A stretch of DNA of 64,000 bases from a virus. Taxonomy: Duplodnaviria; Caudoviricetes. Below the pieces are notes generated by a model, which was given only the letters and a program-made list of their open reading frames with translations, made no database searches and was not told the origin of the DNA. Of the stretch, positions 2,968-56,718 are shown piece after piece. Made by a program: the position numbers and the translations under genes. Each line of letters begins with the position of its first letter. Position 1 is the first letter of the stretch. The stretch lies in the IMG/VR virus record IMGVR_UViG_2861229971_000004; one strand, 5' to 3'.

Positions 2968-5019
2968 ATGAGCCGCCAAGCACAAAACAACTGGGTCGTG
3001 CTCTCACCACCACTCCCAGAACGCAGCCCCGCAAAGCAGGCCTTCCGCGCCCATGCGGCAAGTTTGTCAAAACTGCTGAGCGAGGAATGCGACGGCGAGA
3101 ACTTCGATGAGGCTCTCAAGCGCTTACTGCGCGTCCACACCGCAGACGAGCACGATGCCGCCTTACGCGCTGCGTTGTGCGTCTTGACCGACCTGGCTCG
3201 GCAGCGCTGGTCCATCCGGGTCAACGAGGAACGCGGCGTCGAGGTGAAGCGCCCCGCAGAAAATCAACTCGACCCTTTGCGCGAGAAGGCGCGCATCCGA
3301 GCCCAGGAACTCATCAAGCGCGATGAGCAACTTCGAGAACCCGCGGCGAGGCGGTTCATTAAGGGGATGGAGCAGAAGTCCTTCCACAATGGGAATTTAG
3401 TGTCGATTTACTCGGTCATTCGGGACGGGCGAGAACTCGCGGAGTCGCTCCGCGCCGCGCGCGCACTAAAAGGCGAAGATCGCGTTCGCGCGTTGAGGGA
3501 GGTGATCAATCCCTACCTCCAATTCGTCGACGGGGCCGAGTACTGCGAGCACACCGGGCTCCGTCTGCAAGACATCTGGCGATACTTCCGCCACACATGG
3601 ACGAACCAGTACACGGCCACACCTGGGCGCTCAATGGCCTTCCTAATCCGAGACCGCGCGCGGGAGTACCACCCAGTCATAGGGATCGGGTCTCTCGGGA
3701 GCCCAATTGTGCAAATCCGCGAGCGCGATGCCTGGATAGGCTGGCAACCAGAGGCGTTCTTAGAGTTCGCTAGCGAGTCGCCGTCCGCAGAACTCGGGAT
3801 TTGGCTCCACAAAACGGTGGAAACAGCTATTGGCGAGATCTACCTCGACGACTTTTTTGAGGAAGAACTGCTGTCTCCGCTCGACCTCCGCACTCCGACG
3901 CCGGAGGTCCTTCGGGATCTGTCCGCTTTCGGGGAGAACCAGCGGGAACTCCACCATCGACTTGCCAGTTCGAAGGATCTGAAGCGCTCAACAAAGCGCG
4001 ACGATACGGGCAGCACTGATGCGCACTGGAAGGCGCGTGCACGGACACACCTCTACCGCAGCAAACGAGCGCTCTCACTGGTGGACATGCTCCGATCGCG
4101 CATGGTTCTTCAGCAGCACCTGTCGTCGCCGCCAACTAGCGAAGAAGTGCGCGCGCTGCTCAACACGAGCGATGGGCGCAGGATAGTGAAGAACATCCTG
4201 CGGAAAGCCAAGGCCGACCGCGTCGGTATCGCGATGGCGGACATAACGGTTTGCGGCTCGGTAGCCCCATATAACCTGATCCTCGGGGGGAAACTCGTCT
4301 CGATGCTCGCAGCCAGCCCGGAGGTCGTGACCGCCTACCGCAACAAGTATCTAGCGCAAGAGAGCGAAATCGCTTCCTCGATGGCGGGACGGCCGATTAT
4401 CCGGCGATCAGAACTCGTGTTCCTAGGGACGACTTCGCTCTACGGGATCGGATCCAGCCAATACAACAGGTTGCGGATGCCGGCCGAGCGCATCGGTGGC
4501 AAGAAAGGCGAGAAACTCGCGTTTCTTGAACTTGGTAAGTCAGACGCCTATGGGACTTCGCAATTTAGTTCGGACACGGTCAGAGCCCTCGTCTCTCTGG
4601 TCCAGCAGTCAAGTAACGGCCAACGTGTCAACAGCATTTTCGGCGAGGGCGTGAGCCCAAAACTCCGGAAGATCCGAGATGGGCTCGACGCGCTCAAACT
4701 TCCGACCGACGTGCTCCTCCAGCACGGACGGCAGCGCATCGTGTATGGCGTTCCAGTCGTAAGAAACCTTCGCGAGTTCCTCCTCGGAATGGATAATGAG
4801 CCTGAGTACTGCTTCGACTTGAACGAACCAGAACGCAGCACTGGGGAGATTGGCCGCTGGTGGACAGAGCGTTGGTTGAGAAATCGCATCGAATCCGACG
4901 ACGTCTTGGCGAGGATAGAACAACATACTCTAGTCCGACCTATCCGCCACGGGGCGCGGGTCGTGCTCCCTAATATCGACGACGGTCAGGCGACCCTTTT
5001 TGAAGAGTTCACATACTAG
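2968..5019 (+). CDS. druA: Druantia DruA-like protein (DUF4338-type)
   Basis: Recognised segments IGIGSLGSPIVQIRERDAWIGW, ADITVCGSVAPYNLILGGKLV, LGTTSLYG and FGEGVSPKLR. A DruE-like helicase lies in the same island. Confidence 0.7.
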   Translation: MSRQAQNNWVVLSPPLPERSPAKQAFRAHAASLSKLLSEECDGENFDEALKRLLRVHTADEHDAALRAALCVLTDLARQRWSIRVNEERGVEVKRPAENQLDPLREKARIRAQELIKRDEQLREPAARRFIKGMEQKSFHNGNLVSIYSVIRDGRELAESLRAARALKGEDRVRALREVINPYLQFVDGAEYCEHTGLRLQDIWRYFRHTWTNQYTATPGRSMAFLIRDRAREYHPVIGIGSLGSPIVQIRERDAWIGWQPEAFLEFASESPSAELGIWLHKTVETAIGEIYLDDFFEEELLSPLDLRTPTPEVLRDLSAFGENQRELHHRLASSKDLKRSTKRDDTGSTDAHWKARARTHLYRSKRALSLVDMLRSRMVLQQHLSSPPTSEEVRALLNTSDGRRIVKNILRKAKADRVGIAMADITVCGSVAPYNLILGGKLVSMLAASPEVVTAYRNKYLAQESEIASSMAGRPIIRRSELVFLGTTSLYGIGSSQYNRLRMPAERIGGKKGEKLAFLELGKSDAYGTSQFSSDTVRALVSLVQQSSNGQRVNSIFGEGVSPKLRKIRDGLDALKLPTDVLLQHGRQRIVYGVPVVRNLREFLLGMDNEPEYCFDLNEPERSTGEIGRWWTERWLRNRIESDDVLARIEQHTLVRPIRHGARVVLPNIDDGQATLFEEFTY

Positions 5020-37524: not shown

Positions 37525-39582
37525 TTACGCGCCCGGGTTCTTGTAGAGGCCGCGCCAGTCGATGGCCTTGGCGCCGAAGTCGAGACGGCACTTGATCTCG
37601 ACGCCGTCGACGTCGAAACCGTTGCGGGTCTCGATGTAGGCACCCTGCTGGCCCTCGAGATAGGCGTACTCGATGGTGTCGATCTGGTTCGGGCTGGCCG
37701 CCAGGTACCACGCAGTCTCGCTGGCGGCGTCGAGCCGGGGCTCGCTGATCGGCGCGAGGGTGCGGATCGACTGCGGCACCACGTTCCCGCTGGACGCGGG
37801 CACGAGATTCTGGGCGACCAGCTGCTCGGCCTTCAGTTCCAGCGAGGCGGGCACGATCAGGAAGGCGGGGCGGACGTTCAGCACCGTCTTCTTGTCGAGG
37901 CCGGTCTGCTTGGCCATCGCTGCGCGCGCCGCGCCCACCGCATCGACCGCCAGCGCCGCGCCGGTGCCCGCGAGGTTCTTGTGGGTGGTGTGGAACAGCG
38001 CGTTGCCGTCGGCCATCGCCGGGTTGGCGGTGATGATGCCCCAGACCACATCCGACTCGAGCTGCGCGATGGAGTTGCCGTACATCGCCGGGATCCGCGT
38101 GAACGCGTCGAGATCGTCGTTGATCAGCGTCTGACGGGTGATCGCCACCACCCGGCCATAGGTCTTGACCTTGTAGCTCTCCTTGCTCTCGCCCAGCGTG
38201 CCGCGCTTGAACTCGCCGCTTTCGCCGACCTCGAGCAGCTGCGGCGCTTCGCCGAGCTGGACCCGGTGCATCGCCTTGAAGTCGGTGGCGAGCACCTGGC
38301 GGCAGAACAGCATGAAGGTGCGGGGATAGGCCTCGTAGGCCTGCCGCAGGGTCTTGTTGGTCACCGCCGACAGGATCTCGGGGAAGTCCGAGGTCGAATG
38401 CAGGGCCCGCGTCGCCACCTCGTCGCGCGAGAGGCCGCGCGTGTTCACCCCGGCATTGCCGAGGCTTTCGCGGGCCAGTTCCAGCAGCGTCATGCCGCGA
38501 TACTGCCGGGCGGCGTCCTCCAGCTGGAACAGCGTCGGGCTGTAGCGGTGCAGCAGCGCGTTCGCCACCGCGTCGCGGCGGGTGATGCGCTCGTCCCGGC
38601 CGCCGAGCGGGACGGAGACATGGCCGAAGGTCCGGGTCTCGTCCGACTTCGCGGCGACCTGGTCGAGGATCAGGCGGCGGGATTCGTCGACGCTGACGCC
38701 GCGCTTGACCAGATCATCGGCAAAGCCGCGCTCGAGGTTCAGGCGGCCCGCGAGATCGTAGATGGTGGAGACGCGGTCGCGCTCGGCCTCGCGGGCGCGG
38801 GTGGCAACCGCTTCGGTGTCGGGCGCAGGCGTTGCCTGCGTCTTCGGCTGGTCGCGCGTCTCACTGGCGGCGACCTTCGGGTCGGGCGCAGCCGGTTTCG
38901 GCTCGGTCATGGTGGTGTCCTCGGTTTCGACCGGCGCGGTCGGCTGGGTGGTGGCGGGGGTTGCGGCGTCGCTCGCCGGGGTCTGGGTCTTGTCGGTCAT
39001 CGGGATCGGTCCTTTCGTGCTTGAAGGGGCGTCCCGGCGGTGGAGGACGCAGTCGTGAAGGGGATGCTGGGCGCGGAAGCCCGCGGCGGGGTCGGCGCCG
39101 ACCGCGACGGCGGACACCTCGAACGGCGTCCAATCCACCGCGCGCCAGAGTTCGCGGGCGGCCTCGGGTTTCGAGACCTCGAAGCGGTGGACCTGGTAGC
39201 CGATGGAGACCGCGCGGATGTGCCCGTCCTGGATGTCGCGCCAGATCGGCTCGACATCGGCACGCTCGCTGATCCGCACCAGCGCGATGCCGCGGCCGTT
39301 CTCGATCCGGGCCGAGCCCGGCACGACGGAGCCGATCACCGCGTCGAGCGTGTCGAGCTCGTGCACCTTGAGGAACGGCGCGCCCGCGTTCAGCCGGTCG
39401 AGCCGGACATGGGCGGGATCGAGGCTCAGCTCCTCGTCGTAGGGCTCCCCGAAGAATGTCGCGCGCCGGACGCGCGCCCCCGCCGACCAGACCACCTCGA
39501 CGGTGCGGCTGTCGGCATCGGCCGTGTTCGGCGCAAGCTCCGCCGACCGGCGCATGGCCGGCAGTTCGATCATCGTGTCCAT
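37525..39582 (-). CDS. Prohead protease-major capsid fusion protein
   Basis: N-terminal protease (PFLKVH, VSIGY, EVSAV), a Thr/Pro-rich linker, and a C-terminal capsid domain (HSTSDFP.IL, TYGR...ITRQ.LINDDL, CRLDFGAKAIDWRG). Confidence 0.9.
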   Translation of the reverse strand: MDTMIELPAMRRSAELAPNTADADSRTVEVVWSAGARVRRATFFGEPYDEELSLDPAHVRLDRLNAGAPFLKVHELDTLDAVIGSVVPGSARIENGRGIALVRISERADVEPIWRDIQDGHIRAVSIGYQVHRFEVSKPEAARELWRAVDWTPFEVSAVAVGADPAAGFRAQHPLHDCVLHRRDAPSSTKGPIPMTDKTQTPASDAATPATTQPTAPVETEDTTMTEPKPAAPDPKVAASETRDQPKTQATPAPDTEAVATRAREAERDRVSTIYDLAGRLNLERGFADDLVKRGVSVDESRRLILDQVAAKSDETRTFGHVSVPLGGRDERITRRDAVANALLHRYSPTLFQLEDAARQYRGMTLLELARESLGNAGVNTRGLSRDEVATRALHSTSDFPEILSAVTNKTLRQAYEAYPRTFMLFCRQVLATDFKAMHRVQLGEAPQLLEVGESGEFKRGTLGESKESYKVKTYGRVVAITRQTLINDDLDAFTRIPAMYGNSIAQLESDVVWGIITANPAMADGNALFHTTHKNLAGTGAALAVDAVGAARAAMAKQTGLDKKTVLNVRPAFLIVPASLELKAEQLVAQNLVPASSGNVVPQSIRTLAPISEPRLDAASETAWYLAASPNQIDTIEYAYLEGQQGAYIETRNGFDVDGVEIKCRLDFGAKAIDWRGLYKNPGA

Positions 39583-39587
39583 GAAGG

Positions 39588-41147
39588 TCAGTCCTGTTGG
39601 TCGGCCTGCGCCGGGTCATTGTCCGCGTTGGCGGCCGGGTCGTCGGTGTCCGTTTCGTCGGCGGCCGGGTCGTCGTTCGTCGGATCGCTGCTCTGCGCGC
39701 TGCCGGTCTTGGTCACCCGCCGCGGATCGCTGTCGAGCACCAGCCCCAGCGCGTCCAGCTTGGCGTTGGTCGCGGCGATTTCCGCCAGGACCGCGTCCGG
39801 ATTGCGGCCCTGCCGGGCGATCACCTCGGCCAACGTCATGGTGCCGGAGCGGATCGACAGCAGGTTCGCCATCGCGTCCTTTTGCGGATCCACCGCCTCG
39901 AACTTGGGCGGCGACCATTCCACCGGCACGGTCGGCGACGGGATCTGCCCCGCCGCCCATGCGGCTTCGGTGAACCAGCGCCAGACCGGCGCGCAGAACA
40001 TCGGGATGAAGAGCTGCCATTGGACGGCGTCGATCTGGCGGCGGAACTCGACCAGCCCCGCCCGGATCGAGGAGTAGTTCACCTGGGACAGGTCCCCGGT
40101 CAGCAGCTCGTAGGGCACCCGGAAGCCGGCCGAGATCGTGTGCAGGCTGGCCCGCTTGTACTCGCCATAGCCGCCGGTGGCCGAGGGCTGGTTGAAGCGG
40201 ATGTCCTTGCCGCCGCGCGCATAGGCGATCAGCCCCGGCTCGAACTGCTCGACCCGGTTGCCGTCGGCATCGACCACGGAGGGCGCGATGCCCTGCTGCG
40301 CCTCGTCGTCGCCGAAGACGATGGCGGTGACGCAGGCCTCGGTCTTCTTGCGGACCAGTTCGGCTACTTCATAGTCGTCGAGATCGCGCAAGGACCGGAT
40401 CACCGGCGCGCCCCAAGGGACGCCGCGCGCCTGCGTGCGCTGCTTCTCGTAGACATGGGCGATCTCGGTCGCGGGGACCGGGCGGCTCTGCAGACCGTTC
40501 TGCAAGGCCCCATAGGCGTCGCCGGGATGTTCGGCATGGAGCCAGTAAGCCCGGCGCTTCCCGACCGGGTCGAACTCGATCCCCTGCACGAGGCGGCCTG
40601 CGCCGAGGGCTCCGGACTTGGTGGCGTCGAGGAAGTCCGCTTCCAGCACCTGCAACTGCAGCGGCACCGGCAGGGCATCGCTCGACCGCCGCAGCCTGCG
40701 CCGCACCAGCACCTCGCCCGCCTCGACCATCTCGCGGCAGATCAGCGTCTGCAGACCGTAGAAGTCGAGCTGGCCGTCGGCGTCGCACTCCGCCGTCCAG
40801 CGCTCGAAGAGAGCATCGACCTTCCGGTCGAGCTTGTCGTCGCCGCTGGCGGCGCGCGGCATGATGCCCGCGCCGATGATGTTGTTCACCAGCACCGCCA
40901 CGGCCTTGGCCGCATGCGGGTTGTTGCGCACCAGATCGCGCATCCGGTCGCGCAGCAGCGCCCCGGCCACGCCAATCTCGGTATCGGCCGAGGATCCCGG
41001 CGCGCGCCAGCCCTCCGTCCGCCGCCCGCGTGCAGCGCCGTCATAGCCCCGCGTCAGGGTCTCGAAGGCCTGACGCGCCAGCACGCGACGCGCGGCCATG
41101 CGCGGCGCCACCGATGCGATGGCGTGATCGAACCAGGTCGCCGACAT
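39588..41147 (-). CDS. Lambda-family portal protein
   Basis: LRDRMRDLVRNNPHA, QARGVPW, GDLSQVNYSSIRAGL, VDPQKD. Confidence 0.92.
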   Translation of the reverse strand: MSATWFDHAIASVAPRMAARRVLARQAFETLTRGYDGAARGRRTEGWRAPGSSADTEIGVAGALLRDRMRDLVRNNPHAAKAVAVLVNNIIGAGIMPRAASGDDKLDRKVDALFERWTAECDADGQLDFYGLQTLICREMVEAGEVLVRRRLRRSSDALPVPLQLQVLEADFLDATKSGALGAGRLVQGIEFDPVGKRRAYWLHAEHPGDAYGALQNGLQSRPVPATEIAHVYEKQRTQARGVPWGAPVIRSLRDLDDYEVAELVRKKTEACVTAIVFGDDEAQQGIAPSVVDADGNRVEQFEPGLIAYARGGKDIRFNQPSATGGYGEYKRASLHTISAGFRVPYELLTGDLSQVNYSSIRAGLVEFRRQIDAVQWQLFIPMFCAPVWRWFTEAAWAAGQIPSPTVPVEWSPPKFEAVDPQKDAMANLLSIRSGTMTLAEVIARQGRNPDAVLAEIAATNAKLDALGLVLDSDPRRVTKTGSAQSSDPTNDDPAADETDTDDPAANADNDPAQADQQD

Positions 41148-41358: not shown

Positions 41359-43365
41359 TCAGAACCATCCTCCGCGCCGCCCGAGCCAGTCGGAGCGGCG
41401 CTTGCCCTGCGGGGCCTGTCCCGGCCGGTTGATCTGTCCGGCGGGATCGGTGTCGGTGGGGGCGGCCCCGAGCTGATCCTCGAGGTCGCGCCATTTCTCG
41501 TCGGGCCAGCGGTCCGCGCCCGCGATCCAGGCGGCGGCGCGGGCATAGACCCGGCAATCCAGCGCCTCGTTGCGTTCGCGGAGCTTCTGCCATTCCAGCC
41601 GGGCGAAGCCGCGCTTGGTGCGCACCGTCACCAGCTGCTCGGCCACGAACTGCTTCAGCCATTCGTTCTCGACCCAATGCGGAAGGTGCACCGAGCCGGG
41701 CGGGAACGCCGCGCCTTCGGCCATCTCCTCCTCGGTTGGCCGCGCCAGCCGCAGGAAGCGGTAGGTCTCGGCCTTGAAGGTCGACACCGCCACGGTCCAG
41801 AGCCGCGCCCCGCGCCGCAGGCGTTTCCCGCCCTCGGTCGCGTCGACGAAGGTCGGCCCAGACACCGGGCTCGAGCGGTTGAACCCTTCGACGCCCTTGA
41901 CCGGCGAGACCTGCGCGAAGCCTTGCGCCCGCGACCAGGAATAGACCGCCGGGGCCTCGTAGCCGGTATCGATGGCGAGCCGCGCGATCCGCAGTTGCGC
42001 GCCGCGTTCATGCGGCCAGGACCGGTCGAGCAGCGCGGTCAGCTCCGACCATGCGTCATGCCGATCCGGCCCGCCCTCGATCACGACGTGATCGACGAGC
42101 CAGCTTTCCAGACCACGCCCCCATGCCCAGACATCGACCTCGATCCGGTCCTTCTGCACGTCGGCCCCGGCGGTCAGGAACAGCCCGCCCGCAGGCACCG
42201 TTCCGGATGTCCACCTCTCGCGTCGGTCGTAGAGCCGCTGCCAGTCGGGGGCTTCCCCGGTTTCGACCCATGTCTCGCCGAGGATCGTGTTGCGGAACGC
42301 CTTGATCGCCTCGTCCGACCCTTGGGCCGCGTCCCAAGCCCGCACGATCCGCTCCCAGCTCAGCCAGCCGATCGGCGAATAGAGCGCCGAGAGGTGATAC
42401 CCGACCGTGGTCGGATCGGCGGCCGTGGCGGTCGCCCGCCATTCGCCGCCCTCCAGCATCGCCGTCTTGTGGTGTTCCGCGATTGCCGCGTCGCAGCCCT
42501 CGCAGTGATACTCCGCCGTCTCCGGGCGGCCCTTCTGCCAGCGCAGCCTGTCGAACTTCAGCCACTGCATCGCGCCGCAATGCGGGCACGGCACGAAGAA
42601 CCGGCGCTGGTCGGATGCCTCGTACTCGCGCTCGATCCGGCTCAGACCCCGGATCGTCGGCGTCGAGACCAGCAGCACCTTGCGCCGATGCGCGAAGGTC
42701 AGCGACCGCGCCTCGGCAAGTGTCACCGGATCGCCTTCCTCGTCGGCCGAGGCCGGATAGGCGTCGACCTCGTCGAGGAAGATGTACCGCGCCGGGGTGG
42801 ACCGCAGCCCGACCGCCGAGTTCGCCCCGGTCATGATCAGGATGCCGCCCGCGAACTCCTTCGACAGCATCGTGTTGCCCGCGTCGCGCGAGCGCGCCGG
42901 TTTGACCCGCTCCCGCAGCTCCGGGCTCTCGTCGATCAGCGGATCGATCCGCTGCCGAGAGTTGCGTTTCGCCAGCTCCACCGTCGGCTGGACCGCCAGC
43001 ATCGGCCCGGGCGCCTGATGGATGGCGAACCCGATCCAGTTGTTCCCGGCTTCGGTCGCGCCGACCTGCGCGGCCTTCATGAACACGACCCGCTGCGTGG
43101 GGTCGCCGGGCGACAGCCGGTCCATGATCTCGCGCATGTAGGGCGTGCGCACCGTGCGGTATCGCCCGGGCTCGGCCGAGGCGCGGCCCGAGAGCATCCG
43201 GTGCCGGTCCGCCCATTCCGAAACGGTCAGGTCTGGGTCGGGCCGCAGCCCTGCGCCCCAGGCGCGCAGGATCTCGCCCGCACCGTCGAAGTCCGTCAGG
43301 CCATCGCCGCTCTCACCGGAAGTCGGGCCGGACCTCGGCGAGCTCAATGAGGTGGGCGCGTACAT
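41359..43365 (-). CDS. Terminase large subunit (lambda gpA family); start codon uncertain
   Basis: VFMKAAQVGATE, YIFLDEVDAY, VSTPT, PCPHCG/CEGC, AGADVQKDR, RNEALDCRVYA. Confidence 0.92.
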   Translation of the reverse strand: MYAPTSLSSPRSGPTSGESGDGLTDFDGAGEILRAWGAGLRPDPDLTVSEWADRHRMLSGRASAEPGRYRTVRTPYMREIMDRLSPGDPTQRVVFMKAAQVGATEAGNNWIGFAIHQAPGPMLAVQPTVELAKRNSRQRIDPLIDESPELRERVKPARSRDAGNTMLSKEFAGGILIMTGANSAVGLRSTPARYIFLDEVDAYPASADEEGDPVTLAEARSLTFAHRRKVLLVSTPTIRGLSRIEREYEASDQRRFFVPCPHCGAMQWLKFDRLRWQKGRPETAEYHCEGCDAAIAEHHKTAMLEGGEWRATATAADPTTVGYHLSALYSPIGWLSWERIVRAWDAAQGSDEAIKAFRNTILGETWVETGEAPDWQRLYDRRERWTSGTVPAGGLFLTAGADVQKDRIEVDVWAWGRGLESWLVDHVVIEGGPDRHDAWSELTALLDRSWPHERGAQLRIARLAIDTGYEAPAVYSWSRAQGFAQVSPVKGVEGFNRSSPVSGPTFVDATEGGKRLRRGARLWTVAVSTFKAETYRFLRLARPTEEEMAEGAAFPPGSVHLPHWVENEWLKQFVAEQLVTVRTKRGFARLEWQKLRERNEALDCRVYARAAAWIAGADRWPDEKWRDLEDQLGAAPTDTDPAGQINRPGQAPQGKRRSDWLGRRGGWF

Positions 43366-44335: not shown

Positions 44336-44908
44336 ATGACCAAGCTTTCCGACACCCAAGCCCTGATCCTGAGCGCCGCCGCCCAGCGGCACGAGCACAT
44401 CGCCCTGCCGCTGCCCGAGAGCCTGCGCGGCGGAGCTGCCGCCAAGGTGGTCGGCGCGATGCTCGCGAAGGGGTTCCTGCAGGAGGCCGACGCGGACATG
44501 CGCAAGGGCGAGCTCGTCTGGCGCGAGACCGGCGACGGCCACGGCGTCACACTGATCGCCACCGAGGCAGGCCTCGCCGCCATCGGGATCGAGCCCGAGG
44601 ACGCGAACCTCGCGCCTGCGGGCGCGACGGACGCGCCGACCAAGGAGCCCGCGCCTGATACCCCCACCGGGGCCGAGACCGCGCGCAAGATGCGCACGCC
44701 GCGCGAGGGCACCAAGCAGGCCACGCTGATCGCCATACTGCGCGCGCCGGACGGCGCGACCATCGACGAGATCATGGCCGCGACGGGCTGGCAGTCGCAC
44801 ACGGTGCGCGGCGCGATGGCCGGGGCGCTGAAGAAGAAACTCGGGCTCGAGGTGACCTCGGAGAAGGTCGAGAACCGGGGGCGCGTGTACAAACTCCCCG
44901 CAGCCTGA
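44336..44908 (+). CDS. DUF3489 domain protein (C-terminal winged HTH)
   Basis: TKQATLIAILRAPDGATIDEIMAATGWQSHTVRGAMAGALKKKLGL. Confidence 0.85.
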   Translation: MTKLSDTQALILSAAAQRHEHIALPLPESLRGGAAAKVVGAMLAKGFLQEADADMRKGELVWRETGDGHGVTLIATEAGLAAIGIEPEDANLAPAGATDAPTKEPAPDTPTGAETARKMRTPREGTKQATLIAILRAPDGATIDEIMAATGWQSHTVRGAMAGALKKKLGLEVTSEKVENRGRVYKLPAA

Positions 44909-44928: not shown

Positions 44929-44961
44929 GATGGCCGCCGTCCCTCCGGGGCGGCGGTCGAT
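44929..44961. terminator. GC-rich hairpin between convergent genes
   Basis: GGCCGCCGTCCC-TCC-GGGGCGGCGGTC. Confidence 0.5.
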
Positions 44962-45185
44962 CATTTGGCGGTCCGCATCCGGATCGCCTCGAACACCCGC
45001 CGCAAGGCGAAGGAACGCGCTATCGACACGATGGTGAAGATGGCGCCCATCTTCAGGTTCTGCGCCAGCGTCGTGTGCAGGCCGAAGATCGGGAAGATCA
45101 GGATCTGCGTCATGACCGCGACGCCGTAGCCGACGATCACGTTGGCGACGGACTCGACCAGCGACATGAGGCGTGATTGCTTCAT
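44961..45185 (-). CDS. Small two-TM phage protein
   Basis: MKQSRLMSLVES.ANVIVGY...; its ATG overlaps the stop of the hidden beta ORF (ATGA). Confidence 0.75.
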   Translation of the reverse strand: MKQSRLMSLVESVANVIVGYGVAVMTQILIFPIFGLHTTLAQNLKMGAIFTIVSIARSFALRRVFEAIRMRTAK

Positions 45186-46372
45186 GTCGCCGCCTCATCC
45201 ATCGGCCAGCAATTCAGCCGCGAGAGTTCGCAGCGCATGCGCCGCAACCAGGGGGACCACGCCATTGCCACAGAGGCGAAGCCGGTCCACCCGGTGGGCC
45301 AGCCCATCAGTGCCTCGACGAACAGCGGGTTCAAGGTCCGGCGCGGCTCGGAGGTATCGCTCCCAGCCATCGGCATCACCAGGACCTGGCGGCCAAGCAG
45401 GCCGTTGACCGGCGTGTTCGCCAGCGTCGTCGCCCCGTCCTTGTGATCGCGGGCCGTCGGCGTCATCCACATCCCCGCCGCATGGGTCAGGTCCGCCGTC
45501 CGGCGATTGCCCGCGCTCGGCTTGCAGCCGTCGTTCGCCATCGGCGTCGGCCAATCCCGCGCCATGCGGTCCAGACCTTTCTCGTCCCTCCGCTCGCCAC
45601 CCCGGCTGCGGAAACTGTCGATCTGCGGCGTCGGCCAGAGCGCGGCCGTGGTCGCCAGGTTCATGCCGTGCTGGCCTGCTTCCTGCGATGGCGTCGGCTT
45701 CGTCTGCCGGTTCTCGTTGGCGCTGGCCCTCGGCGTCGGCCAGAGGCGCAGCAGTTCCGTCCGGTTCCCGCCACTCGATCGGGTGCCAGAGCAGGCGCGC
45801 GGGGTCGGCCAGCTCGTCCCCCTCGCGGATGGCGAGGATGAACAGCCGCTCGCGTTTGTGGGGCGCGCCGACTTCCGCCGCCGTGAAGAGGCCTGCCGCA
45901 AGCTTGTAGCCCATGCCGACCAGTCCTGCGGCGACTTCGGGGAAGCCGAGGCGGAGATGATGGGCGACATTCTCGAGGAAGACGAAGGGCGGTTTGATTT
46001 CGCCGATGATGCGGGCGACATGGGGCCAGAGGTGGCGCGGGTCATCCGCACCCCGGCGCTTGCCCGCGACGGAGAACGGCTGGCACGGATAGCCCGCAGT
46101 AACGATGTCCACCGCGCCGCGCCATGGGCGGCCGTCGAAGGTTCCAACGTCGTCCCAGACAGGCGCGTGATCCAGGGACGCGTCTTCCATCCGCGCCACG
46201 AGAGTGGCTGCGGCGTAGGTTTCCCGTTCGACATGGCCCACAGCACGATATCCGGGGCACGCGAGGTGCAGCCCGAGGTCGAGACCGCCCGCGCCGGAGC
46301 AGAGGGAGAGGCCGAAGAGGCATGCGTCTCCGGCCCCGGAAGCGCGTCCGGAGGAAGGTAAAGCCAGGTCAT
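45182..46372 (-). CDS. Nested beta polypeptide of the C5 methyltransferase (396 aa; TRD-like WPTP repeats plus motif IX)
   Basis: ATG 4 nt downstream of the alpha ATG; five W(P/M)TP repeats; LNPLFVEALMGWPTGWT; stop coupled to the next gene. Confidence 0.75.
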   Translation of the reverse strand: MTWLYLPPDALPGPETHASSASPSAPARAVSTSGCTSRAPDIVLWAMSNGKPTPQPLSWRGWKTRPWITRLSGTTLEPSTAAHGAARWTSLLRAIRASRSPSRASAGVRMTRATSGPMSPASSAKSNRPSSSSRMSPIISASASPKSPQDWSAWATSLRQASSRRRKSARPTNASGCSSSPSARGTSWPTPRACSGTRSSGGNRTELLRLWPTPRASANENRQTKPTPSQEAGQHGMNLATTAALWPTPQIDSFRSRGGERRDEKGLDRMARDWPTPMANDGCKPSAGNRRTADLTHAAGMWMTPTARDHKDGATTLANTPVNGLLGRQVLVMPMAGSDTSEPRRTLNPLFVEALMGWPTGWTGFASVAMAWSPWLRRMRCELSRLNCWPMDEAAT

Positions 46373-46376
46373 GCAT
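45195..46376 (-). CDS. DNA (cytosine-5)-methyltransferase, alpha polypeptide lacking motif IX
   Basis: Motif I LCSGAGG, IV AGYPCQPFS, VI ENV, VIII RERLF and X RLRLCGNGVVP. Confidence 0.9.
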   Translation of the reverse strand: MHDLALPSSGRASGAGDACLFGLSLCSGAGGLDLGLHLACPGYRAVGHVERETYAAATLVARMEDASLDHAPVWDDVGTFDGRPWRGAVDIVTAGYPCQPFSVAGKRRGADDPRHLWPHVARIIGEIKPPFVFLENVAHHLRLGFPEVAAGLVGMGYKLAAGLFTAAEVGAPHKRERLFILAIREGDELADPARLLWHPIEWREPDGTAAPLADAEGQRQREPADEADAIAGSRPARHEPGDHGRALADAADRQFPQPGWRAEGRERSGPHGAGLADADGERRLQAERGQSPDGGPDPCGGDVDDADGPRSQGRGDDAGEHAGQRPAWPPGPGDADGWERYLRAAPDLEPAVRRGTDGLAHRVDRLRLCGNGVVPLVAAHALRTLAAELLADG

Positions 46377-46377
46377 G

Positions 46378-47763
46378 TCACGCGGCGGTCTTGCGCTTTC
46401 GCGCGGGTTCGGGGGCGGCGTCCAGGTCCGGCGTATCGGCCGGGGCTTCGGCGTCGTCGCCCAGCCGCTCGGTTCTCACCTGCGCGAAGGTCCTGCCGTC
46501 GCCGTCGAGGATCGCGTCGCGGCCGGTCTCGGCCTGCCAGCGCTCCACGGCGACATCGACATAGGCCGGGCTGATCTCCATCGCAAAGACGCGGCGTCCG
46601 TTGGCCTCGCCTGCCATGATCTGAGAGCCGGACCCCGAGAAGGGTTCGTAGCAGAGGCCGCCGCGGGCGACGTGCTGGCGCATCGGGATGCCGAAGGCGT
46701 CGAGCGGTTTCGGCGTCGGATGGTCGGGGCGCTCGTCCTTGGCGAAGGACGGCATCTCCCAGGTCGACGGCAGTGTCTGCTCGGCCACCTTCGGCGGACG
46801 GTTCGGACGGCGCCAGCCCATGAAGCAGGGTTCGTGCTTCCAGAGGTAGTGGGACCGGGTCAGGACGCCTCGGTCCTTCACCCAGATGATCTGCTGATGG
46901 ACGAAGGCCCCGGCTTTTTCCCAGCAGGCCTCCAGCATCGCCTGGCGGCGCGAGGCATGCCAGCAATACCAAGCAGCATTTTCGGCGATGGCTTCCGTCA
47001 CGGCTGCAGCGATGAAGCCATCGTAAAGCTCGGCCCCCTGCGAACTGTCGTCCCAGGTCGTGCCATAGGACGCGGACCAGTCCTTGTTGCGGGTCGGATG
47101 GTTCGAGCCGTCGTAGTCCACGAGATACGGCGGGTCGGTCGCGAACAGCACCGCCCGCTCGCCATTCATCAGGCGGCGCACATCGGCAGCGCTGGTGCTG
47201 TCGCCGCAAAGGAGGCGATGGTCTCCGAGGATCCACAGATCGCCCGTGCGCGACGCCGGGTTGCGGGGTGGTTCGGGGATGGTCACCGTCGGCACGGAGC
47301 CTCCGGCGCCACCTTCTTCACCGTCCGCCTCCGGCACGAAGGCCAGCAGCTTGTCCAACTCGCCATCGGAAAAGCCGACCAGCGACAGGTCGAAGTCTTC
47401 CGCCATCAGGTCGTTCAGTTCCGCCGACAGCAGCGCCTCGTCCCAGGTGCCGAGTTCCGTCAGCTTGTTGTCCGCGATCCGGTAGGCCCGCCGCTGCGCC
47501 TCGGTCAGATGGCCCAGCACGATCACCGGCGCTTCGGTCAGTCCCAGCTGGGTTGCGGCCAGCACGCGCCCGTGGCCCGCGATCAACTCCCCGTCCTCGG
47601 CGACGAGGCAGGGCACGGTCCAGCCGAACTCGGCCATGCTGGCGGCGATCTTCGCCACCTGGTCCGCCCCATGCGCCTTCGCGTTCTTCGCGTAGGGCTG
47701 GAGGCGCGACAGCGGCCACGTCTCGATCGCGTCCGGGGCGAAGCTCAGCGTCATGGTGGGCAA
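46378..47763 (-). CDS. ParB-like domain fused to an N6-A/N4-C DNA methyltransferase (beta class)
   Basis: N-terminal PYAKNAKAH...IAGHGR...YRIADNK (ParB); DPPY precedes HPTPKP and EPFSGSGS. Confidence 0.9.
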   Translation of the reverse strand: MPTMTLSFAPDAIETWPLSRLQPYAKNAKAHGADQVAKIAASMAEFGWTVPCLVAEDGELIAGHGRVLAATQLGLTEAPVIVLGHLTEAQRRAYRIADNKLTELGTWDEALLSAELNDLMAEDFDLSLVGFSDGELDKLLAFVPEADGEEGGAGGSVPTVTIPEPPRNPASRTGDLWILGDHRLLCGDSTSAADVRRLMNGERAVLFATDPPYLVDYDGSNHPTRNKDWSASYGTTWDDSSQGAELYDGFIAAAVTEAIAENAAWYCWHASRRQAMLEACWEKAGAFVHQQIIWVKDRGVLTRSHYLWKHEPCFMGWRRPNRPPKVAEQTLPSTWEMPSFAKDERPDHPTPKPLDAFGIPMRQHVARGGLCYEPFSGSGSQIMAGEANGRRVFAMEISPAYVDVAVERWQAETGRDAILDGDGRTFAQVRTERLGDDAEAPADTPDLDAAPEPARKRKTAA

Positions 47764-47787
47764 GGTTCCTCGGTCGGGTGGATGCCG

Positions 47788-48060
47788 GTGGCTTCCGGAC
47801 TCCGGATGCCGGGCCGGACTCCAAACGGAGTCCAGCGGCTACAAGCGGTGTCCGGTCGTAAGGCCAGCGTTCATTGGTGTTTGCGCGGGGCGTAAGTGGC
47901 TCCGGCTTCCGGGTGGCTTCCCAAAAATCCGGCCCTGTCGCTGGCGATGTCCCGCGCTTCGCCCGCCAGCATAGGAATGTCGCCAGGAAGGAACCGGAAA
48001 CTGCCGTGAGGTGGACCCGGGCCGGACCCTCGCTGGATGCCGGGGTCCAGGTGGCCCCCG
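47788..48060. other. Candidate cos/packaging site
   Basis: Non-coding gap upstream of the methylase-terminase operon. Central dyad GCTGGCG-N17-CGCCAGC (47940-47970), flanked by repeated GTGGCTTCC, GGACTCC/GGAGTCC and GGACCC elements. Confidence 0.4.
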
Positions 48061-49411: not shown

Positions 49412-49645
49412 ACGTATGGGAGGAGTGGCCAACCCTGTGGGGTGGCCCTCCCATACGTAGTATGGGGGTTTGACACCTAACTGTTCCGGGGAGGACAAGT
49501 AGCTGAAATCATTACGGAATAAGACTTCATGAAGTCTTCGGGCATGAGTTAGGGACCTGACTCTTATTTGCCCGTAACCCCTTGATTTCGTTGAGTGCAC
49601 AGTTGGCGCTGTCATATGAGTCAGGCCTCACTCATATGAGTTAGG
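49412..49645. other. Candidate replication origin (palindromes and iteron-like repeats)
   Basis: 12-bp IR ACGTATGGGAGG/CCTCCCATACGT, CCCATAC-GTA-GTATGGG, an 18-bp palindrome AAGACTTCATGAAGTCTT, and three ATGAGTYAGG copies; directly after the primase-helicase gene. Confidence 0.5.
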
Positions 49646-51942
49646 TCGTCCTCCAGCCCCTCCGGGTAGACCCAGACGGCGGGGTTTTCGACCTGCAGGC
49701 AGAGCCCGGATTGGGGGCATTTGAAGTGGCTGGGCAGGACCGGACGGGCGGTTGTGGTGACCTCGCCGATGTCCGGATCGACCTCCTCGACAGGCGCGCC
49801 GAACTGCATGCCCTCGACGCAGAGATAGCCGAACCGCGACCGGGTGACGGGGAAGCCGAACCCCGAGGGGTCGCGCAGGAACTTCACGAAGCCCTTGGTC
49901 GCCAGCACGCTGAGGCGTTCACGGATCGTGTGCTTGCTGCCCAGACCGCCCCGGTTCTCGAAGGTCTCGGCGAACTGCATCGCGGTGTAGAGGCGCTCGC
50001 TCGCCGCCTCATCCAGCAGCATGCCGAGGATGACATCGTGTTTGCGTAGCCGCTCGGCATCGAGCCTGGCCCCGACCTCCTTGCGCACCAGTCGCTCGTT
50101 CAGCGGGTTCAGTTCGACCCATTCGCCCTTCACCTTGTCGATCAGCTTGCCCGGCAGCGCGGGGCCGTTGCGCAGCTCGATCTCCAGCCTGCGGACGGTG
50201 CTGTCCTCGTCGGGCCGGTGCATGAGCAGCCCCGAGGTGTAGAAACCGCGCAGCGCGCTTGCGCCGGAGAGCGCGAGGAAGGGATCGTCCTTGACCTGAT
50301 GCTTGGTGGCCTTGCGGGTGTGGTGGGCGAGGATGACGCCCGCGTCCGGATTGACCGCCTCGCGCAAAAGCTCCACCCGATCTTTCAGGAAGAACATCAT
50401 GGCGGTGTTGTCGTTCTCGCCGCCGCCCTCAGGGCCGCCATCGAAGAGGTTGCGGATCGGGTCGATGACGATGATGTCGGGTGGCGCCTCGGGGAATGCG
50501 GCCCGGATCGCCTCGGCCACGCGGGCGACGCCTTCCGCGTCGAGCAGTAGCTTCAGCTTCGGCGTGGCGATGAAGGTGTCGCGCGCGGCGGCGATCACGG
50601 CGGCGGGCAGCGCGATCTGCTGCATGCGCTCGCGCAGATAGTGATACTGGATCTCGGCCTGCAGATAGAACACGCGCAGCGGCCGGGGCGGCGTGAAGCC
50701 GAGGAACGGCACGCCAGCGGCCATGTGCACGAGCCATGAGATCAGGAAGTCGCTCTTGCCGACCTTGGGCGCGCCGCCCAGCACCAGGAGACCGCCCGGC
50801 GTCAGCACGCGCGGCCCGATGACGTCCTCGGGCATCGGGCTCGTGTCGTCGAGGAGCGCGCCAAGGCTGAAGGTCGGCAGCGGGCTGGTCGGGGCATCGA
50901 CGTGGGCTGCGCGCAGGAGCGGCGGACCGTTGCGCTTCACATGCAGCGCCCAGAGCCGTTCGGACTCCGCCATGAGCCGATCGAGCGGCCACGATGGGCG
51001 CAGCATGGCGGCGTTGTAGCCGCAGATCGCCTCCCAGCCCGCGAAGGGGTCGAGGCGGCCCTCGTGCACCAGGCGCACGTAATGGCCGATGGCGGCGCTG
51101 GCCCCCTGGAAGCGGGACCAGTCGTCCACCGCGCCTTCGCGCACCGGCGTGGTGAGCACCGCGTCGATGCCGGGCTTCGCGGTCGGCGCGGCAACGTCGC
51201 TGGCGAAGCCCACACCGGGCAGCGGCGGCATCTCGGCGACCTTCTCGGCGAAGTCCGCAAGGTCGACTTCGACGTCGCGCTGTTCGCGGATCTGCACGAG
51301 GCGCTGGTGGCCGTGCTTGTGATAGACTGTGCCGGGCACCCGGATCGGCTGGTGTGCCGAGCGGAAATGCGTGTCGCCGCCGACCTTCACGGCAATCTCG
51401 CCGCGCAGGCGACAGAGGGTGGAGAGATCACCGCCCTCGGCGGGTTCGGTCAGTTTCCACCAGACATGGAGCTTCGCGGCGCCCTCTGGCGTGCGCCCGC
51501 CGCTTTCGATGATCAGCGTCGGCGTTCCGATGTGGCGGGTGACATGATCCAGCTTGGCTGGTATATCGCCTGCGTCGAGATCGACGACGATGGCCCGCAT
51601 CTGCAGCACATCGGCGGCGCGGGCCTGACCCTGTTCGGCGACCGTGCCGGGGATGACATAAACGGCGGCGCCTTCGCGGTTCGCCCATCCAGCGAAAGTT
51701 GCGAGTTTCTCGGGCGCGGTGTCGTCGGCCGGGATCCAGATGTTGTGCGGCTTGCCGTCTCGGCCCTGACCCTTGTCGACGAAACCCCGGAGCGGGATCA
51801 GCCCCTCGCACCAGCTGAACACGGTGTCGAGGAAGACGGCGATCTGCTGGGGATCAGGGTCGCAGCCGAACGGGTTCTCGGACGGTGGCCCGTCATTGAA
51901 GTCCATCCACGGGTTGAAATGCAGGATGCCGTCGTCGCTCAT
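49621..51942 (-). CDS. Primase-helicase (RepB-primase-like N-terminus, AAA_25/RepA helicase C-terminus)
   Basis: IVVDLD, LHVWW, QPIRVPGT.YHK; GAPKVGKS, IIVIDP, ILAHHTRK; real start at 51942. Confidence 0.85.
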   Translation of the reverse strand: MSDDGILHFNPWMDFNDGPPSENPFGCDPDPQQIAVFLDTVFSWCEGLIPLRGFVDKGQGRDGKPHNIWIPADDTAPEKLATFAGWANREGAAVYVIPGTVAEQGQARAADVLQMRAIVVDLDAGDIPAKLDHVTRHIGTPTLIIESGGRTPEGAAKLHVWWKLTEPAEGGDLSTLCRLRGEIAVKVGGDTHFRSAHQPIRVPGTVYHKHGHQRLVQIREQRDVEVDLADFAEKVAEMPPLPGVGFASDVAAPTAKPGIDAVLTTPVREGAVDDWSRFQGASAAIGHYVRLVHEGRLDPFAGWEAICGYNAAMLRPSWPLDRLMAESERLWALHVKRNGPPLLRAAHVDAPTSPLPTFSLGALLDDTSPMPEDVIGPRVLTPGGLLVLGGAPKVGKSDFLISWLVHMAAGVPFLGFTPPRPLRVFYLQAEIQYHYLRERMQQIALPAAVIAAARDTFIATPKLKLLLDAEGVARVAEAIRAAFPEAPPDIIVIDPIRNLFDGGPEGGGENDNTAMMFFLKDRVELLREAVNPDAGVILAHHTRKATKHQVKDDPFLALSGASALRGFYTSGLLMHRPDEDSTVRRLEIELRNGPALPGKLIDKVKGEWVELNPLNERLVRKEVGARLDAERLRKHDVILGMLLDEAASERLYTAMQFAETFENRGGLGSKHTIRERLSVLATKGFVKFLRDPSGFGFPVTRSRFGYLCVEGMQFGAPVEEVDPDIGEVTTTARPVLPSHFKCPQSGLCLQVENPAVWVYPEGLEDDLTHMSEA

Positions 51943-52709
51943 GCCGGCAGCCTCCAGCAGCGCTCGGCCCACGGGCAGAAGCGGCACTCGAAGAAGTCGG
52001 GCGTGGTGGCGATGCGCGGCAGCAACTCGCCCGCATCGGTCGCCTGCAGGATCCGCACGCCCCGGTCGGACATGCGCTGCGCGAGGTCGGCGTCGAATGG
52101 CACCAGTTCGTGGTGCATCTCGGCCGTGTCCTTGTTGATCGCGGTGAACACAGCAGGCGCGGCGCTGATGCCTGGCACGCTGGTTTCCATGTAGGCCTGA
52201 TAGAGCGCGATCTGGGCGGCGTAGACCGGCTTCGACTTGGTCACGCCGTCCTTGACGCAGGCGCGCCAGTTCTTCGCGTTCATCGTCTTGCATTCCCAGA
52301 GGGCCGGAACGGCAAGACCGAAGCCCTCGGGCCCGGCGGCGATGATGCCATCAACATGGCCCCGGATGCGCCCGCCCGCGACCGAGAAGCCGAACTGGCC
52401 GCCATCGGGCCGGTTGCCCTTGCGGGTGTAGAGGTCGAAGCCCGCGCCGCGCAGCCAGGCGACGGCCAGATCCTCGAGCGTGTGGCCGATGGCGAAGATG
52501 CGCAGCGATTGGCCCGAGAAGTCCTGGCCCTCGTCCTTCGGCGTCGCGGTGAACTCGAACTGCAGCGCCCGCTCGCAGGCATGGCCGAGGCGCGAGCCGC
52601 CGAGATAGTCGCGGGGCGGCCGCGTCGCCTGATCGGCGGTGAGCGCCCGATCGACGGCGGCGTTGACTCGCTCGGCGAAGCTGGGCCGGTGATTGTAATC
52701 GAGGGTCAA
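51939..52709 (-). CDS. PD-(D/E)XK exonuclease (RecB/Cas4-like, 4-Cys)
   Basis: GHACER, GHVDG, WECK, QIALY, CRFCPWAERC; TTG start. Confidence 0.8.
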   Translation of the reverse strand: MTLDYNHRPSFAERVNAAVDRALTADQATRPPRDYLGGSRLGHACERALQFEFTATPKDEGQDFSGQSLRIFAIGHTLEDLAVAWLRGAGFDLYTRKGNRPDGGQFGFSVAGGRIRGHVDGIIAAGPEGFGLAVPALWECKTMNAKNWRACVKDGVTKSKPVYAAQIALYQAYMETSVPGISAAPAVFTAINKDTAEMHHELVPFDADLAQRMSDRGVRILQATDAGELLPRIATTPDFFECRFCPWAERCWRLPA

Positions 52710-53116
52710 AACGGCACCTCCGGCGTCTGCGCCCGGGCGATGTCGGACATGGCCTCGCGGAAGCCCTCGACGGCTTCCTCGATCAGCGCGCGCACCTGCG
52801 CCTCGGTGAGTTCGGCAAGCGGGGTGGCCCAGCCGATCTCGTCCATCAGCAGAGCCACGCGCTTCATGGTGGCGGTGATCGCGGCGCGCTCTTCCTCGGT
52901 CAGGTCAACCATGGCGAAACGCTCCCGCGCCAAGCGCGTCCAGAAGGACTGGCAGGGCATCGAGCAGAACCAGACCGAAGGCCGAGGCTGCTTCGACCGG
53001 TGCGGATCGAACCAGCCAAAACCACGGGTGGGTTGCCGGCAGACAGCACAGAGCGTTCCACGCGGATGCCAGAGCCGCCGCCGGTCCTCGGCGGTGATGG
53101 GGGTGATGGAAGCCAT
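52706..53116 (-). CDS. DUF6511-like protein with an N-terminal Cys cluster
   Basis: CAVC...FCSMPCQ; LAELTEAQVRALIEEAV; ends EVPF. Confidence 0.7.
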   Translation of the reverse strand: MASITPITAEDRRRLWHPRGTLCAVCRQPTRGFGWFDPHRSKQPRPSVWFCSMPCQSFWTRLARERFAMVDLTEEERAAITATMKRVALLMDEIGWATPLAELTEAQVRALIEEAVEGFREAMSDIARAQTPEVPF

Positions 53117-53119
53117 GGG

Positions 53120-54808: not shown

Positions 54809-54821
54809 GGCCGGTCTCCCC

Positions 54822-55445
54822 TTACTGCGCCCAGCTCGGCCGACCGGCGGCGCCGGGGGCGGACGCGGGCTGGCTGGGCTGGGTGGCGGTGGCAGGCTGC
54901 TGCGCGGCGTGGCCCTGCGCCGGGGCGGCGGTGAACTGCGGCGCGACCGTGCCCATCAGCGCGGCGTAGTCGCGATGGTCGGGCGTGACGGCGGCGCGGA
55001 TTTCGTTCTTGTCCTCGCCGTTGGTGTCGGTGCCGATGTCGATGCGGGCGACGAACTCGACCCCGTCGAGATCGCCGAAGCCGTTGATGCGGCGGCGGGC
55101 CTGCGCCTCGGGGGAGTTGTCCTTGTCGGACACGCCGCGCGCCGAGTTCAGGATGCCGCGGATCAGGCCGCGCCCCATGTTCGCCCAGTCCGGGCCCTTC
55201 GGGCTGTAGAGGCCGATCAGCGACCAGACCTTGCGCCGGGCATAGGGGCCCTCGACGACAGTGTATTCGGCGTCAAGATAGACGGCGCCGGTGGCGGCGC
55301 GGCGCGCCCAGCCGCCGGTCCAGCCCTGCGAGGGGTCATCGAAGCCGCCGGGGCGGAGCGTCAGGCGCACCTTGGCGAGCGTGCCCTTGGGGATGACGTT
55401 GGTGTTGGATTGCGCGGAGTTGAAGTCGTTCCAGGGTCCGGACAT
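54822..55445 (-). CDS. Putative ssDNA-binding protein
   Basis: OB-fold-like VIPKGTLAKVRL...YLDAEYTV..G.YARRKVW and a Q/P/A-rich tail; follows the Sak4-like ATPase. Confidence 0.6.
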   Translation of the reverse strand: MSGPWNDFNSAQSNTNVIPKGTLAKVRLTLRPGGFDDPSQGWTGGWARRAATGAVYLDAEYTVVEGPYARRKVWSLIGLYSPKGPDWANMGRGLIRGILNSARGVSDKDNSPEAQARRRINGFGDLDGVEFVARIDIGTDTNGEDKNEIRAAVTPDHRDYAALMGTVAPQFTAAPAQGHAAQQPATATQPSQPASAPGAAGRPSWAQ

Positions 55446-55496
55446 TGCGCGGCTCCTTTCAGTTGGAGGATGGGACGCGCAGCGGCGTCAGAGGGG

Positions 55497-55526
55497 AAAA
55501 GCCACCCCGGCGACCGGATCGGGACA
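55497..55526 (-). promoter_or_regulatory. Bipartite motif copy A (TGTCCCG-N14-GTGGCTTTT)
   Basis: Intergenic, upstream of the ssb-like gene; same half-sites and spacing as copies B and C. Confidence 0.6.
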
Positions 55527-55546
55527 CCGGGCGTGGCGAGAGGCGC

Positions 55547-56422: not shown

Positions 56423-56718
56423 CACTGGCCCTCCTTCTTCATCACCGCCGTGGCGGCGCGATCGGCGCCGATGCACCCCGCCTCGCGGGCGAGCTTGTAG
56501 AGCCGCTTCAGCGCATCGGCGCGGCGGTAGGCAGCCGTGCTCTCGCGCTCAGCCTCCACGATCGCGAAGGCGATCTCGTCGACGGTGGCCTCGACGACCG
56601 GCAGCGGCTCGTGCGGCTCGTCACCGGCGCGCTGCGGCAGGGAAATAGTTTCGGGGAGGTCTTCAAGGGCGTAGCTCGCCTTGCGAAGACGGGTGATGTC
56701 GTCCGGCTGGTCCGGCAT
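56422..56718 (-). CDS. Hypothetical phage protein (98 aa)
   Basis: MPDQPDDITRLRK... after a GGAG RBS; stop overlaps the next start. Confidence 0.65.
   Translation of the reverse strand: MPDQPDDITRLRKASYALEDLPETISLPQRAGDEPHEPLPVVEATVDEIAFAIVEAERESTAAYRRADALKRLYKLAREAGCIGADRAATAVMKKEGQ

Follow-up and report, generated by a model that had tools for sequence, protein, structure and literature searches.

Two complete reading frames of one 1.19-kb prophage gene probably encode the two chains of a cytosine C5 methyltransferase

Can one stretch of DNA be read end to end in two frames, so that each frame supplies one part of a single cytosine C5 methyltransferase? This question was raised by a locus on the minus strand (45182..46376) of the IMG/VR virus record IMGVR_UViG_2861229971_000004 (Duplodnaviria; Caudoviricetes), of which a stretch of 64,000 nucleotides, called the window below, was analyzed. 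In the first-pass annotation, which was made from the letters of the sequence, the locus had been described as a C5 methyltransferase split into two fully overlapping frames, alpha and beta, with start codons 4 nucleotides (nt) apart at 46380-46369, and all coordinates of these starts proved exact. To our knowledge, such a layout has been proven biochemically for only one enzyme, M.EcoHK31I of E. coli, and long same-strand overlapping genes in prokaryotes and phages are, as far as we know, still few and disputed. The locus is most probably an alpha/beta C5 methyltransferase of the M.EcoHK31I type with complete overlap and twin starts. The features of the locus are listed below by their positions in the window (ORF, open reading frame; aa, amino acids; GC, guanine plus cytosine).

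45195..46376, minus strand: alpha ORF, 393 aa, with the catalytic large domain, a predicted disordered linker and the motif X block
45182..46372, minus strand: beta ORF, 396 aa, in the +1 frame relative to alpha; its stop TGA is 45184-45182
46369..46380, minus strand: twin start TGA-C-ATG-C-ATG-A, read directly from the sequence
46380-46378, minus strand: stop TGA of the upstream gene, followed by C (46377) and the alpha ATG (46376-46374)
46373, minus strand: C, followed by the beta ATG (46372-46370), 4 nt 3' of the alpha ATG, and by A (46369)
45792..46376, minus strand: region N (alpha codons 1-195), where alpha is the primary coding frame, with motifs I-VIII
46152..46241, minus strand: dual-constrained segment 1, alpha codons 46-75 and beta SNGKPTPQPLSWRGWKTRPWI..LSGT
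45882..45971, minus strand: dual-constrained segment 2, alpha codons 136-165 (motif VI onwards) and beta SPIIS..DWSAWATALRQASSR
45338..45820, minus strand: region M, WPTP repeats of beta over the alpha linker, marked by a switch in third-position GC and by the variant classes
45284..45343, minus strand: motif IX-like segment of beta, RRTLNPLFVEALMGWPTGWT
45198..45401, minus strand: conserved C-terminal block of alpha, residues 326-393, including motif X
45182..45185, minus strand: ATGA junction of the beta stop and the ATG of a DUF7220 gene

The alpha frame carried the catalytic chain. Motifs I (FGLSLCSGAGGLDLG), IV (GYPCQPFS, with the catalytic Cys of the PCQ motif), VI (ENV), VIII (HKRERLFIL) and X (LCGNGVVP) were found in it and motif IX was not, a description already given in the first-pass annotation and borne out both by reading and by Pfam family PF00145, which matched alpha at residues 23-189 only (E = 3e-33). 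A profile of alpha homologues was aligned by HHalign to nine canonical single-chain C5 methyltransferases with a probability of 99.85% over 161 columns of the motif I-VIII stretch, and Foldseek with the AlphaFold2 (AF2) model of alpha returned M.HaeIII and M.HhaI at about E = 1e-10 over about 175-185 columns. In this model, residues 20-197 were folded, residues 198-335 had a predicted local distance difference test (pLDDT) score below 50 and no secondary structure, and a helix (373-392, pLDDT 71-81) followed motif X. Neither a target-recognition domain (TRD) nor motif IX was found between motifs VIII and X of alpha, where residues 198-335 were unconstrained, predicted to be disordered and free of Pfam matches. 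In the alignment of alpha homologues the C-terminal block spanned about 65 residues, longer than motif X, with the consensus P.FPP.P..W..L..P.L.PA..DG.A.R.DRLR.GNGVVP..AA.A.R.L, and G370, N371, G372 and V373 of motif X were invariant (alignment A2). This block overlapped the motif IX-like segment of beta and the conserved beta tail (..TEWS.WL.RMR.ELSRL). Motif X thus shares its chain with motifs I-VIII; the alignment of phrog_363 to alpha extended through residue 385, and the alpha C-terminus also matched phrog_1008 weakly (E = 0.008).

The beta frame carried the candidate recognition chain. Its middle part consisted of WPTP-type repeats (WPTPRA.., WPTPQ.., WPTPMANDG.. and WMTPTARDHKDG), followed by the motif IX-like segment, whose sequence RTLNPLFVEALMGWPTGW fitted motif IX in pattern and position and was read in the window as RTLNPLFVEALMGWPTGWT. 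In the beta alignment (A1), N348, P349, F351, M356-P359 and W362 were invariant. The leader of beta contained three conserved patches, including the N-terminus M(T/S)WLY.P, the rest being mostly weakly constrained; W62 and W67 in segment 1 and S136, S147 and W154 in segment 2 were nearly invariant across subfamilies, and R165 in segment 2 was invariant. Beta matched phrog_1008 (E = 1e-18) and phrog_27243 (E = 2.5e-13) of the PHROG families. The target-recognition region likely lies in the WPTP repeats of beta and not on alpha. An ESM Atlas comparison, in which the nearest clusters were viral PF00145 proteins (score 0.90), was given no weight, since a wrong frame over a real gene can give this level.

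GC content by codon position showed alpha as the coding frame over about codons 1-195 and beta over about codons 195-345, the last 45 codons being mixed. Openness of the second frame was rare in the genome: the +1 frame of 708 coding-like ORFs held a mean of 8.6 stops per 300 codons, and none of the 708 was free of stops. For the window copy, tested with the amino-acid sequence of alpha fixed and the codon usage of the genome, the probability that alpha has no stop in the middle region was 0.03. Taken alone, the window gave weak to moderate evidence for selected double openness. A conservative shuffling of synonymous codons in diverged loci gave P <= 0.012 per locus for region N in four loci, and P = 0.002-0.3 for the middle region across all loci. 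As judged from these sequences, double openness across homologues is far beyond chance.

The diverged set comprised 15 distinct loci, namely the one in the window, a second copy in the same genome and 13 from further genomes; 200 genomes of the same family had been scanned, and homologues were found in 14 further genomes. In all 15 loci, motifs I-VIII and X lay in one frame and the WPTP repeats and motif IX in the +1 frame, and in all 15 both frames were open over the shared region and the third frame was closed. One of these loci had a GC content of 48%, and in the most distant one (L015) the beta frame opened only about 40 codons into alpha. The close set, scattered over the Alphaproteobacteria, held the 80 closest homologues (88-94% nucleotide identity), of which 79 were complete. 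The first-pass annotation had named interruption of the beta frame in close homologues as a finding that would speak against it; both frames were intact in 76 of the 79. More widely, a scan that took one genome per species yielded 571 related loci, a search with beta among 1.84 billion cluster representatives gave 7139 at E <= 1e-3, many of them full-length, and beta co-occurred with alpha in every locus examined.

The same layout was present in Komagataeibacter phage phiKX1, E. coli phage N15 (gp58), Klebsiella phage PIN1 and E. coli phage vB_Eco_K-01. A tblastn search of phage records with the beta of the window gave two hits only, and the beta of phiKX1 was needed as a bridge; used as the query, it returned 241 phage records. 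In N15, PIN1 and K-01 (L031, L032 and L033; about 50% GC), beta started 90-290 nt after alpha, not 2-4 nt. The annotation of these phages was inconsistent: alpha was annotated in N15 and K-01, beta in PIN1 (as 'DNA methyltransferase') and only a fragment of beta in phiKX1. Loci of this type are usually annotated as one protein.

Several individual copies were also recorded. The second copy in the same genome (L002, G000:C1:1847943-1849127) had a beta 90% identical, and a third, divergent locus of that genome (G000:C1, about 121.3-122.6 kb, minus strand) had LPTP repeats and the same two-frame layout, with alpha open for 430 aa and beta for 363 aa. Three broken copies were seen among the 79 complete close homologues, with a stop at alpha codon 328 in L036 and indels truncating beta in L091 (codon 328) and L109 (codon 236). 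In phiKX1 (L030, 2023-3679) the alpha frame of 548 aa was wholly unannotated, and an HNH-like ORF in the third frame (3161..3679) ended in a second copy of the beta tail (..WDDCAVTAMPSSRKSR), which suggests a mobile HNH insertion inside the methyltransferase gene of this phage. Metagenome ORFs P0004, P0005, P0006, P0028 and P0078 were alpha-to-beta chimeras in which the frame switched at differing points. They are probably due to indels or assembly errors, and P0078, with 10 member sequences, may be a real fused variant.

The starts and the ends of the two frames were conserved as well. The sequence ATGnATGA was kept in 79 of the 79 complete close homologues. The beta start RTGTGGCTCTAC was invariant in the 10 diverged loci that have it, most of which showed a Shine-Dalgarno-like site 6-12 nt 5' of the beta start; in all 10 the only start available to alpha was a GTG 2 nt further on (RTGTGG, with RTG for beta and GTG for alpha). 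In other subfamilies the twin start thus exists in another form, behind one Shine-Dalgarno-like site. The beta frame of the window was also open 5' of the beta ATG, as an off-frame of the preceding methylase gene. At the other end, the alpha stop lay 10 nt upstream of the DUF7220 ATG and the beta stop overlapped that ATG. The coupling of the beta stop, and not the alpha stop, to the next gene by ATGA had been pointed out before; the junction was indeed present, and at least 66 of the 80 close homologues kept it, followed by an ORF of about 70-78 aa.

Variants within the close set allowed selection to be read in each frame separately (69 distinct sequences and 899 distinct variants, with stop expectations matched by mutation type). 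In region N, changes silent in alpha and non-silent in beta occurred at rates of 0.71 (transitions) and 0.45 (transversions). Beta-stop variants silent in alpha were expected to number 19.7, and 2 were found on the consensus background (Poisson P(<=2) = 6e-7). In region M, changes silent in beta and non-silent in alpha occurred at rates of 0.83 (transitions) and 0.66 (transversions), and 2 alpha-stop variants silent in beta were found on the consensus background against 18.2 expected (P(<=2) = 2e-6). Real stops numbered 0 in either frame, for in every carrier a second change abolished the stop. The stop-creating changes lay at gene positions 107, 275, 645 and 786 (counted from the alpha ATG, 46376), each with a neighbouring rescuing change, and the rescued codons were TGC, TGG or TGT at two of these sites and TCG at the other two. 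Stops are thus selected against in both frames, and each frame is protected from them exactly where its own amino-acid sequence is free to vary. Such stop avoidance in the passenger parts fits full-length translation of both frames, and not a model in which the parts are joined by frameshifting.

Diversity at silent sites was compared with that of a control, the single-frame methylase gene upstream in the same loci, whose third-position diversity was 0.27-0.34 (0.29). At 4-fold sites of beta in the middle region the diversity was 0.28; as this matches the control, alpha is without amino-acid constraint there. At 4-fold sites of alpha in region N it was 0.165, and the reduction was concentrated in codons 46-75 and 136-165, which pooled gave 0.053 versus 0.223 for the rest of the region (Mann-Whitney U test, p = 1e-8). 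The third-position diversity of alpha was 0.03-0.07 in codons 46-75 and 0.06-0.09 in codons 136-165, and the two segments coincided with near-invariant residues of beta (SWRGWKTRPWI and DWSAWATALR). In codons 346-390 the 4-fold-site diversity was 0.09 for alpha and 0.06 for beta, about 61% of such sites being invariant in each frame, and in codons 346-375 none of the three codon positions showed more than near-zero diversity. Over the first 15 codons variability was highest at the wobble position of beta and not at that of alpha, so that the beta N-terminus M(T/S)WLY.P is the constrained reading there.

Suppressed synonymous variation across homologues, which the first-pass annotation had proposed as a check, was therefore seen where both frames carry conserved motifs: silent diversity is normal in stretches with one passenger frame and drops 3- to 5-fold where such motifs lie in both. 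The amino-acid constraint is region-specific, and dual coding comes in degrees: the start, two patches of region N and the last 45-65 codons are strictly dual-coding, and elsewhere only openness is required. In about half of each protein (alpha 198-335 and the greater part of beta 1-140) the constraint is mainly on openness and not on amino-acid sequence. The near-100% dual-coding locus of the M.EcoHK31I type proposed earlier was supported in this way, with a correction to its division of labor: the split probably runs between a large and a small domain, not between 'everything except motif IX' and motif IX.

How such a gene might work can be proposed as follows. Ribosomes would begin at either of the two ATG codons 4 nt apart, probably by re-initiation past the stop of the upstream methylase gene. 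Those starting on alpha would make the large catalytic domain (motifs I-VIII), a disordered linker of about 135 residues imposed by the other frame, and the motif X block that completes the domain. Those starting on beta would make a leader across the catalytic region of alpha and then a small domain composed of the WPTP-repeat TRD and the motif IX-like segment. Alpha and beta would combine into one enzyme, as in M.EcoHK31I. The twin starts, placed at the upstream stop or behind one Shine-Dalgarno-like site, would set the ratio of alpha to beta, and the conserved ATGA at the end of beta would hand ribosomes to the DUF7220 gene. We consider it likely that the locus encodes an obligate dual-coded enzyme, a 1.19-kb gene read end to end from twin starts in which each frame contributes one domain and the DNA of the other's domain is a disordered passenger; that a very large phage and prophage methyltransferase family, mostly mis-annotated, has this as its standard design; and that few of the fully overlapping same-strand gene pairs known from bacteria or their viruses are longer.

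A number of points weigh against this view. Translation of both frames we infer from comparison of sequences, and the association of the two chains, like the need of both for methylation, would hold by analogy with M.EcoHK31I. For the window copy, the probability of no beta stop over codons 1-190 was 0.26, which is not significant, and the 80 close homologues are related, so that the variant counts are not fully independent events. Of the earlier description of beta, the 396-aa frame open over the same 1.19 kb and the motif IX-like pattern stood. Against the nine canonical C5 methyltransferases the sole HHalign hit of beta fell on motif IX with a probability of 0.3% (E = 0.21), so that the motif IX assignment, suggested by pattern and position, is not statistically supported. 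No Pfam match was obtained for beta, all 21 members lacking PF00145 at E values up to 10; among the PDB sequences the beta profile found no solved relative, its one match, to MS2 coat protein, being short and due to chance; and the AF2 prediction of beta alone, from a 21-sequence alignment, was unusable (pLDDT 35). Most of beta residues 1-140 vary freely in amino acids, and translation of the beta leader might matter only for reaching the functional part.

One rival explanation is that both proteins are made without being halves of one enzyme. Alpha would then be self-sufficient or carry an unrecognised TRD, and beta would be an overprinted protein with another role, such as regulation by DNA binding, specificity or anti-restriction. 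The lack of statistically supported homology between beta and any part of a C5 methyltransferase would agree with this, as would the conserved patches of the beta leader, which have no counterpart in canonical enzymes. However, alpha, whose stretch from motif VIII to motif X lacks constraint and is predicted to be disordered, offers no candidate for a TRD or motif IX, and the core of beta sits exactly where canonical genes have both. Beta moreover accompanies alpha in every locus examined, and M.EcoHK31I shows that a chain bearing motif IX can act in trans (PMC2836561). Two unrelated proteins, in whichever of these forms, are thus considered unlikely. The canonical order of the parts can also be explained by one chain made through two programmed frameshifts, +1 after motif VIII and -1 after motif IX, with the rest left untranslated: the joined parts would give I-VIII, TRD, IX and X, motif IX of beta directly precedes motif X of alpha on the DNA, and chimeric alpha-to-beta ORFs exist in metagenomes. 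Yet these chimeras switch at different points, and motifs IV, IX and X occurred together in one chain in 0 of 257 collected relatives. No slippery sequence was conserved at either frame junction across subfamilies, and the G5 run in the window varied even among close homologues. Frameshifting further predicts no selection on the skipped parts, yet about 18-20 stops were expected and 0 real ones were found, and it leaves the conserved beta start with its own Shine-Dalgarno-like site unexplained. On this slippery-site, stop-avoidance, beta-start and single-chain evidence the double frameshift was rejected as improbable.

A further explanation would be that the second frame is a by-product of high GC content, or that the gene is decaying or was mis-sequenced with two compensating frameshifts. 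The window, with about 69% GC, does contain many long off-frame ORFs, and the probability of 0.26 for an open beta over region N with the alpha sequence fixed is in line with chance in this one copy. Against this stand the 708 coding-like ORFs of the genome without a single stop-free +1 frame, the persistence of the layout at 48% GC and in phages of E. coli and Klebsiella, the 76 of 79 close homologues intact in both frames, and the significance of both the stop avoidance and the suppression of silent diversity. A GC-driven ORF, a pseudogene and a sequencing error were rejected as contradicted by these comparative data, and we regard this explanation as hardly credible.

The two-chain, dual-coded enzyme that we favour has a precedent. 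M.EcoHK31I (E. coli HK31, YGGCCR; Lee, Kam and Shaw 1995) is a two-chain C5 methyltransferase whose alpha chain contains motifs I-VIII, the TRD and motif X; motif IX comes from a beta chain that is read from the alpha gene in another frame, and the enzyme needs both chains (PMC2836561, PMC3404938), so that the precedent cited in the first-pass annotation was as claimed. The window locus resembles it in having an alpha with motifs I-VIII plus X but lacking IX, and a predicted second chain in another frame inside the alpha gene. Compared by description, the two differ in other respects: in M.EcoHK31I alpha holds the predicted TRD, and beta, a short chain, is nested in part of the gene, whereas in the window the WPTP region, under selection between motifs VIII and X, is on beta, the overlap is complete (396 versus 393 aa) and 4 nt separate the starts. 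Another natural C5 methyltransferase in two chains, M.AquI (CYCGRG; Karreman and de Waard 1990), is divided in the variable region (PMC3404938). Its second chain carries the distal variable region, IX and X, whereas the window locus returns motif X to the alpha frame; an arrangement with IX and X on the second chain was not found, motif X lying in the alpha frame in every locus, and unlike in M.AquI the two genes of the window overlap completely. With M.HhaI and M.HaeIII (PF00145) the N-terminal 170 residues of alpha agree in sequence and fold, and the order of motifs on the DNA is canonical, but the small domain is out of frame in the window and no frame holds all ten motifs. Artificially split M.HhaI and M.SssI have been reported to assemble into active enzyme from separately made large- and small-domain fragments (PMC3404938, PMC2836561); those are engineered fragments from separate genes, whereas the window locus is a natural dual-coded gene.

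A full-text literature search turned up no paper describing this family, though one may still exist, and the reviews PMC5009743 and PMC8227390 are silent on it in their texts. M.EcoHK31I (1995) already provides the principle; compared with that enzyme, the locus differs in the complete overlap, the likely TRD on beta and the twinned starts. If both chains are made and needed, near-100% dual coding would occur naturally and widely in this family, with selection that can be measured in both frames, and many phage and prophage records of 'DNA cytosine methyltransferase' would cover half of an enzyme, with alpha, beta or neither annotated. The twin start codons could serve as a model for the setting of subunit ratios, and the locus as a template from nature for split methyltransferases in which one chain has the catalytic domain and the other the specificity. 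What would surprise specialists is that a very large family of phage methyltransferases uses two complete frames, and ordinary genetics in laboratory phages such as N15 offers a direct test of the reading.

The locus belongs to a prophage and lies between replication genes and packaging and head genes. The neighbouring genes in the window are listed below.

46378..47763, minus strand: ParB-N6/N4 DNA methylase gene, 461 aa, upstream of the locus (PF01555, E = 8e-9; weak ParB_N match)
44961..45185, minus strand: DUF7220 small protein gene, 74 aa, downstream of the locus (PF23858, E = 4e-34)
41359-43365: terminase large subunit (terminase gpA), downstream of the locus
39588-41147: portal, lambda-type, downstream of the locus
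37525-39582: capsid, downstream of the locus

Further upstream (49621-56476), an AAA_25 protein of 890 aa, a ResIII helicase and an AAA_24 protein were encoded, and a DUF3489 gene occupied 44336-44908 on the opposite strand. Two antisense ORFs were open opposite the methyltransferase genes, at 45507-46361 (plus strand, 284 aa) and 46375-47895 (plus strand, 506 aa), and both look like the ordinary antisense open frames of high-GC DNA.

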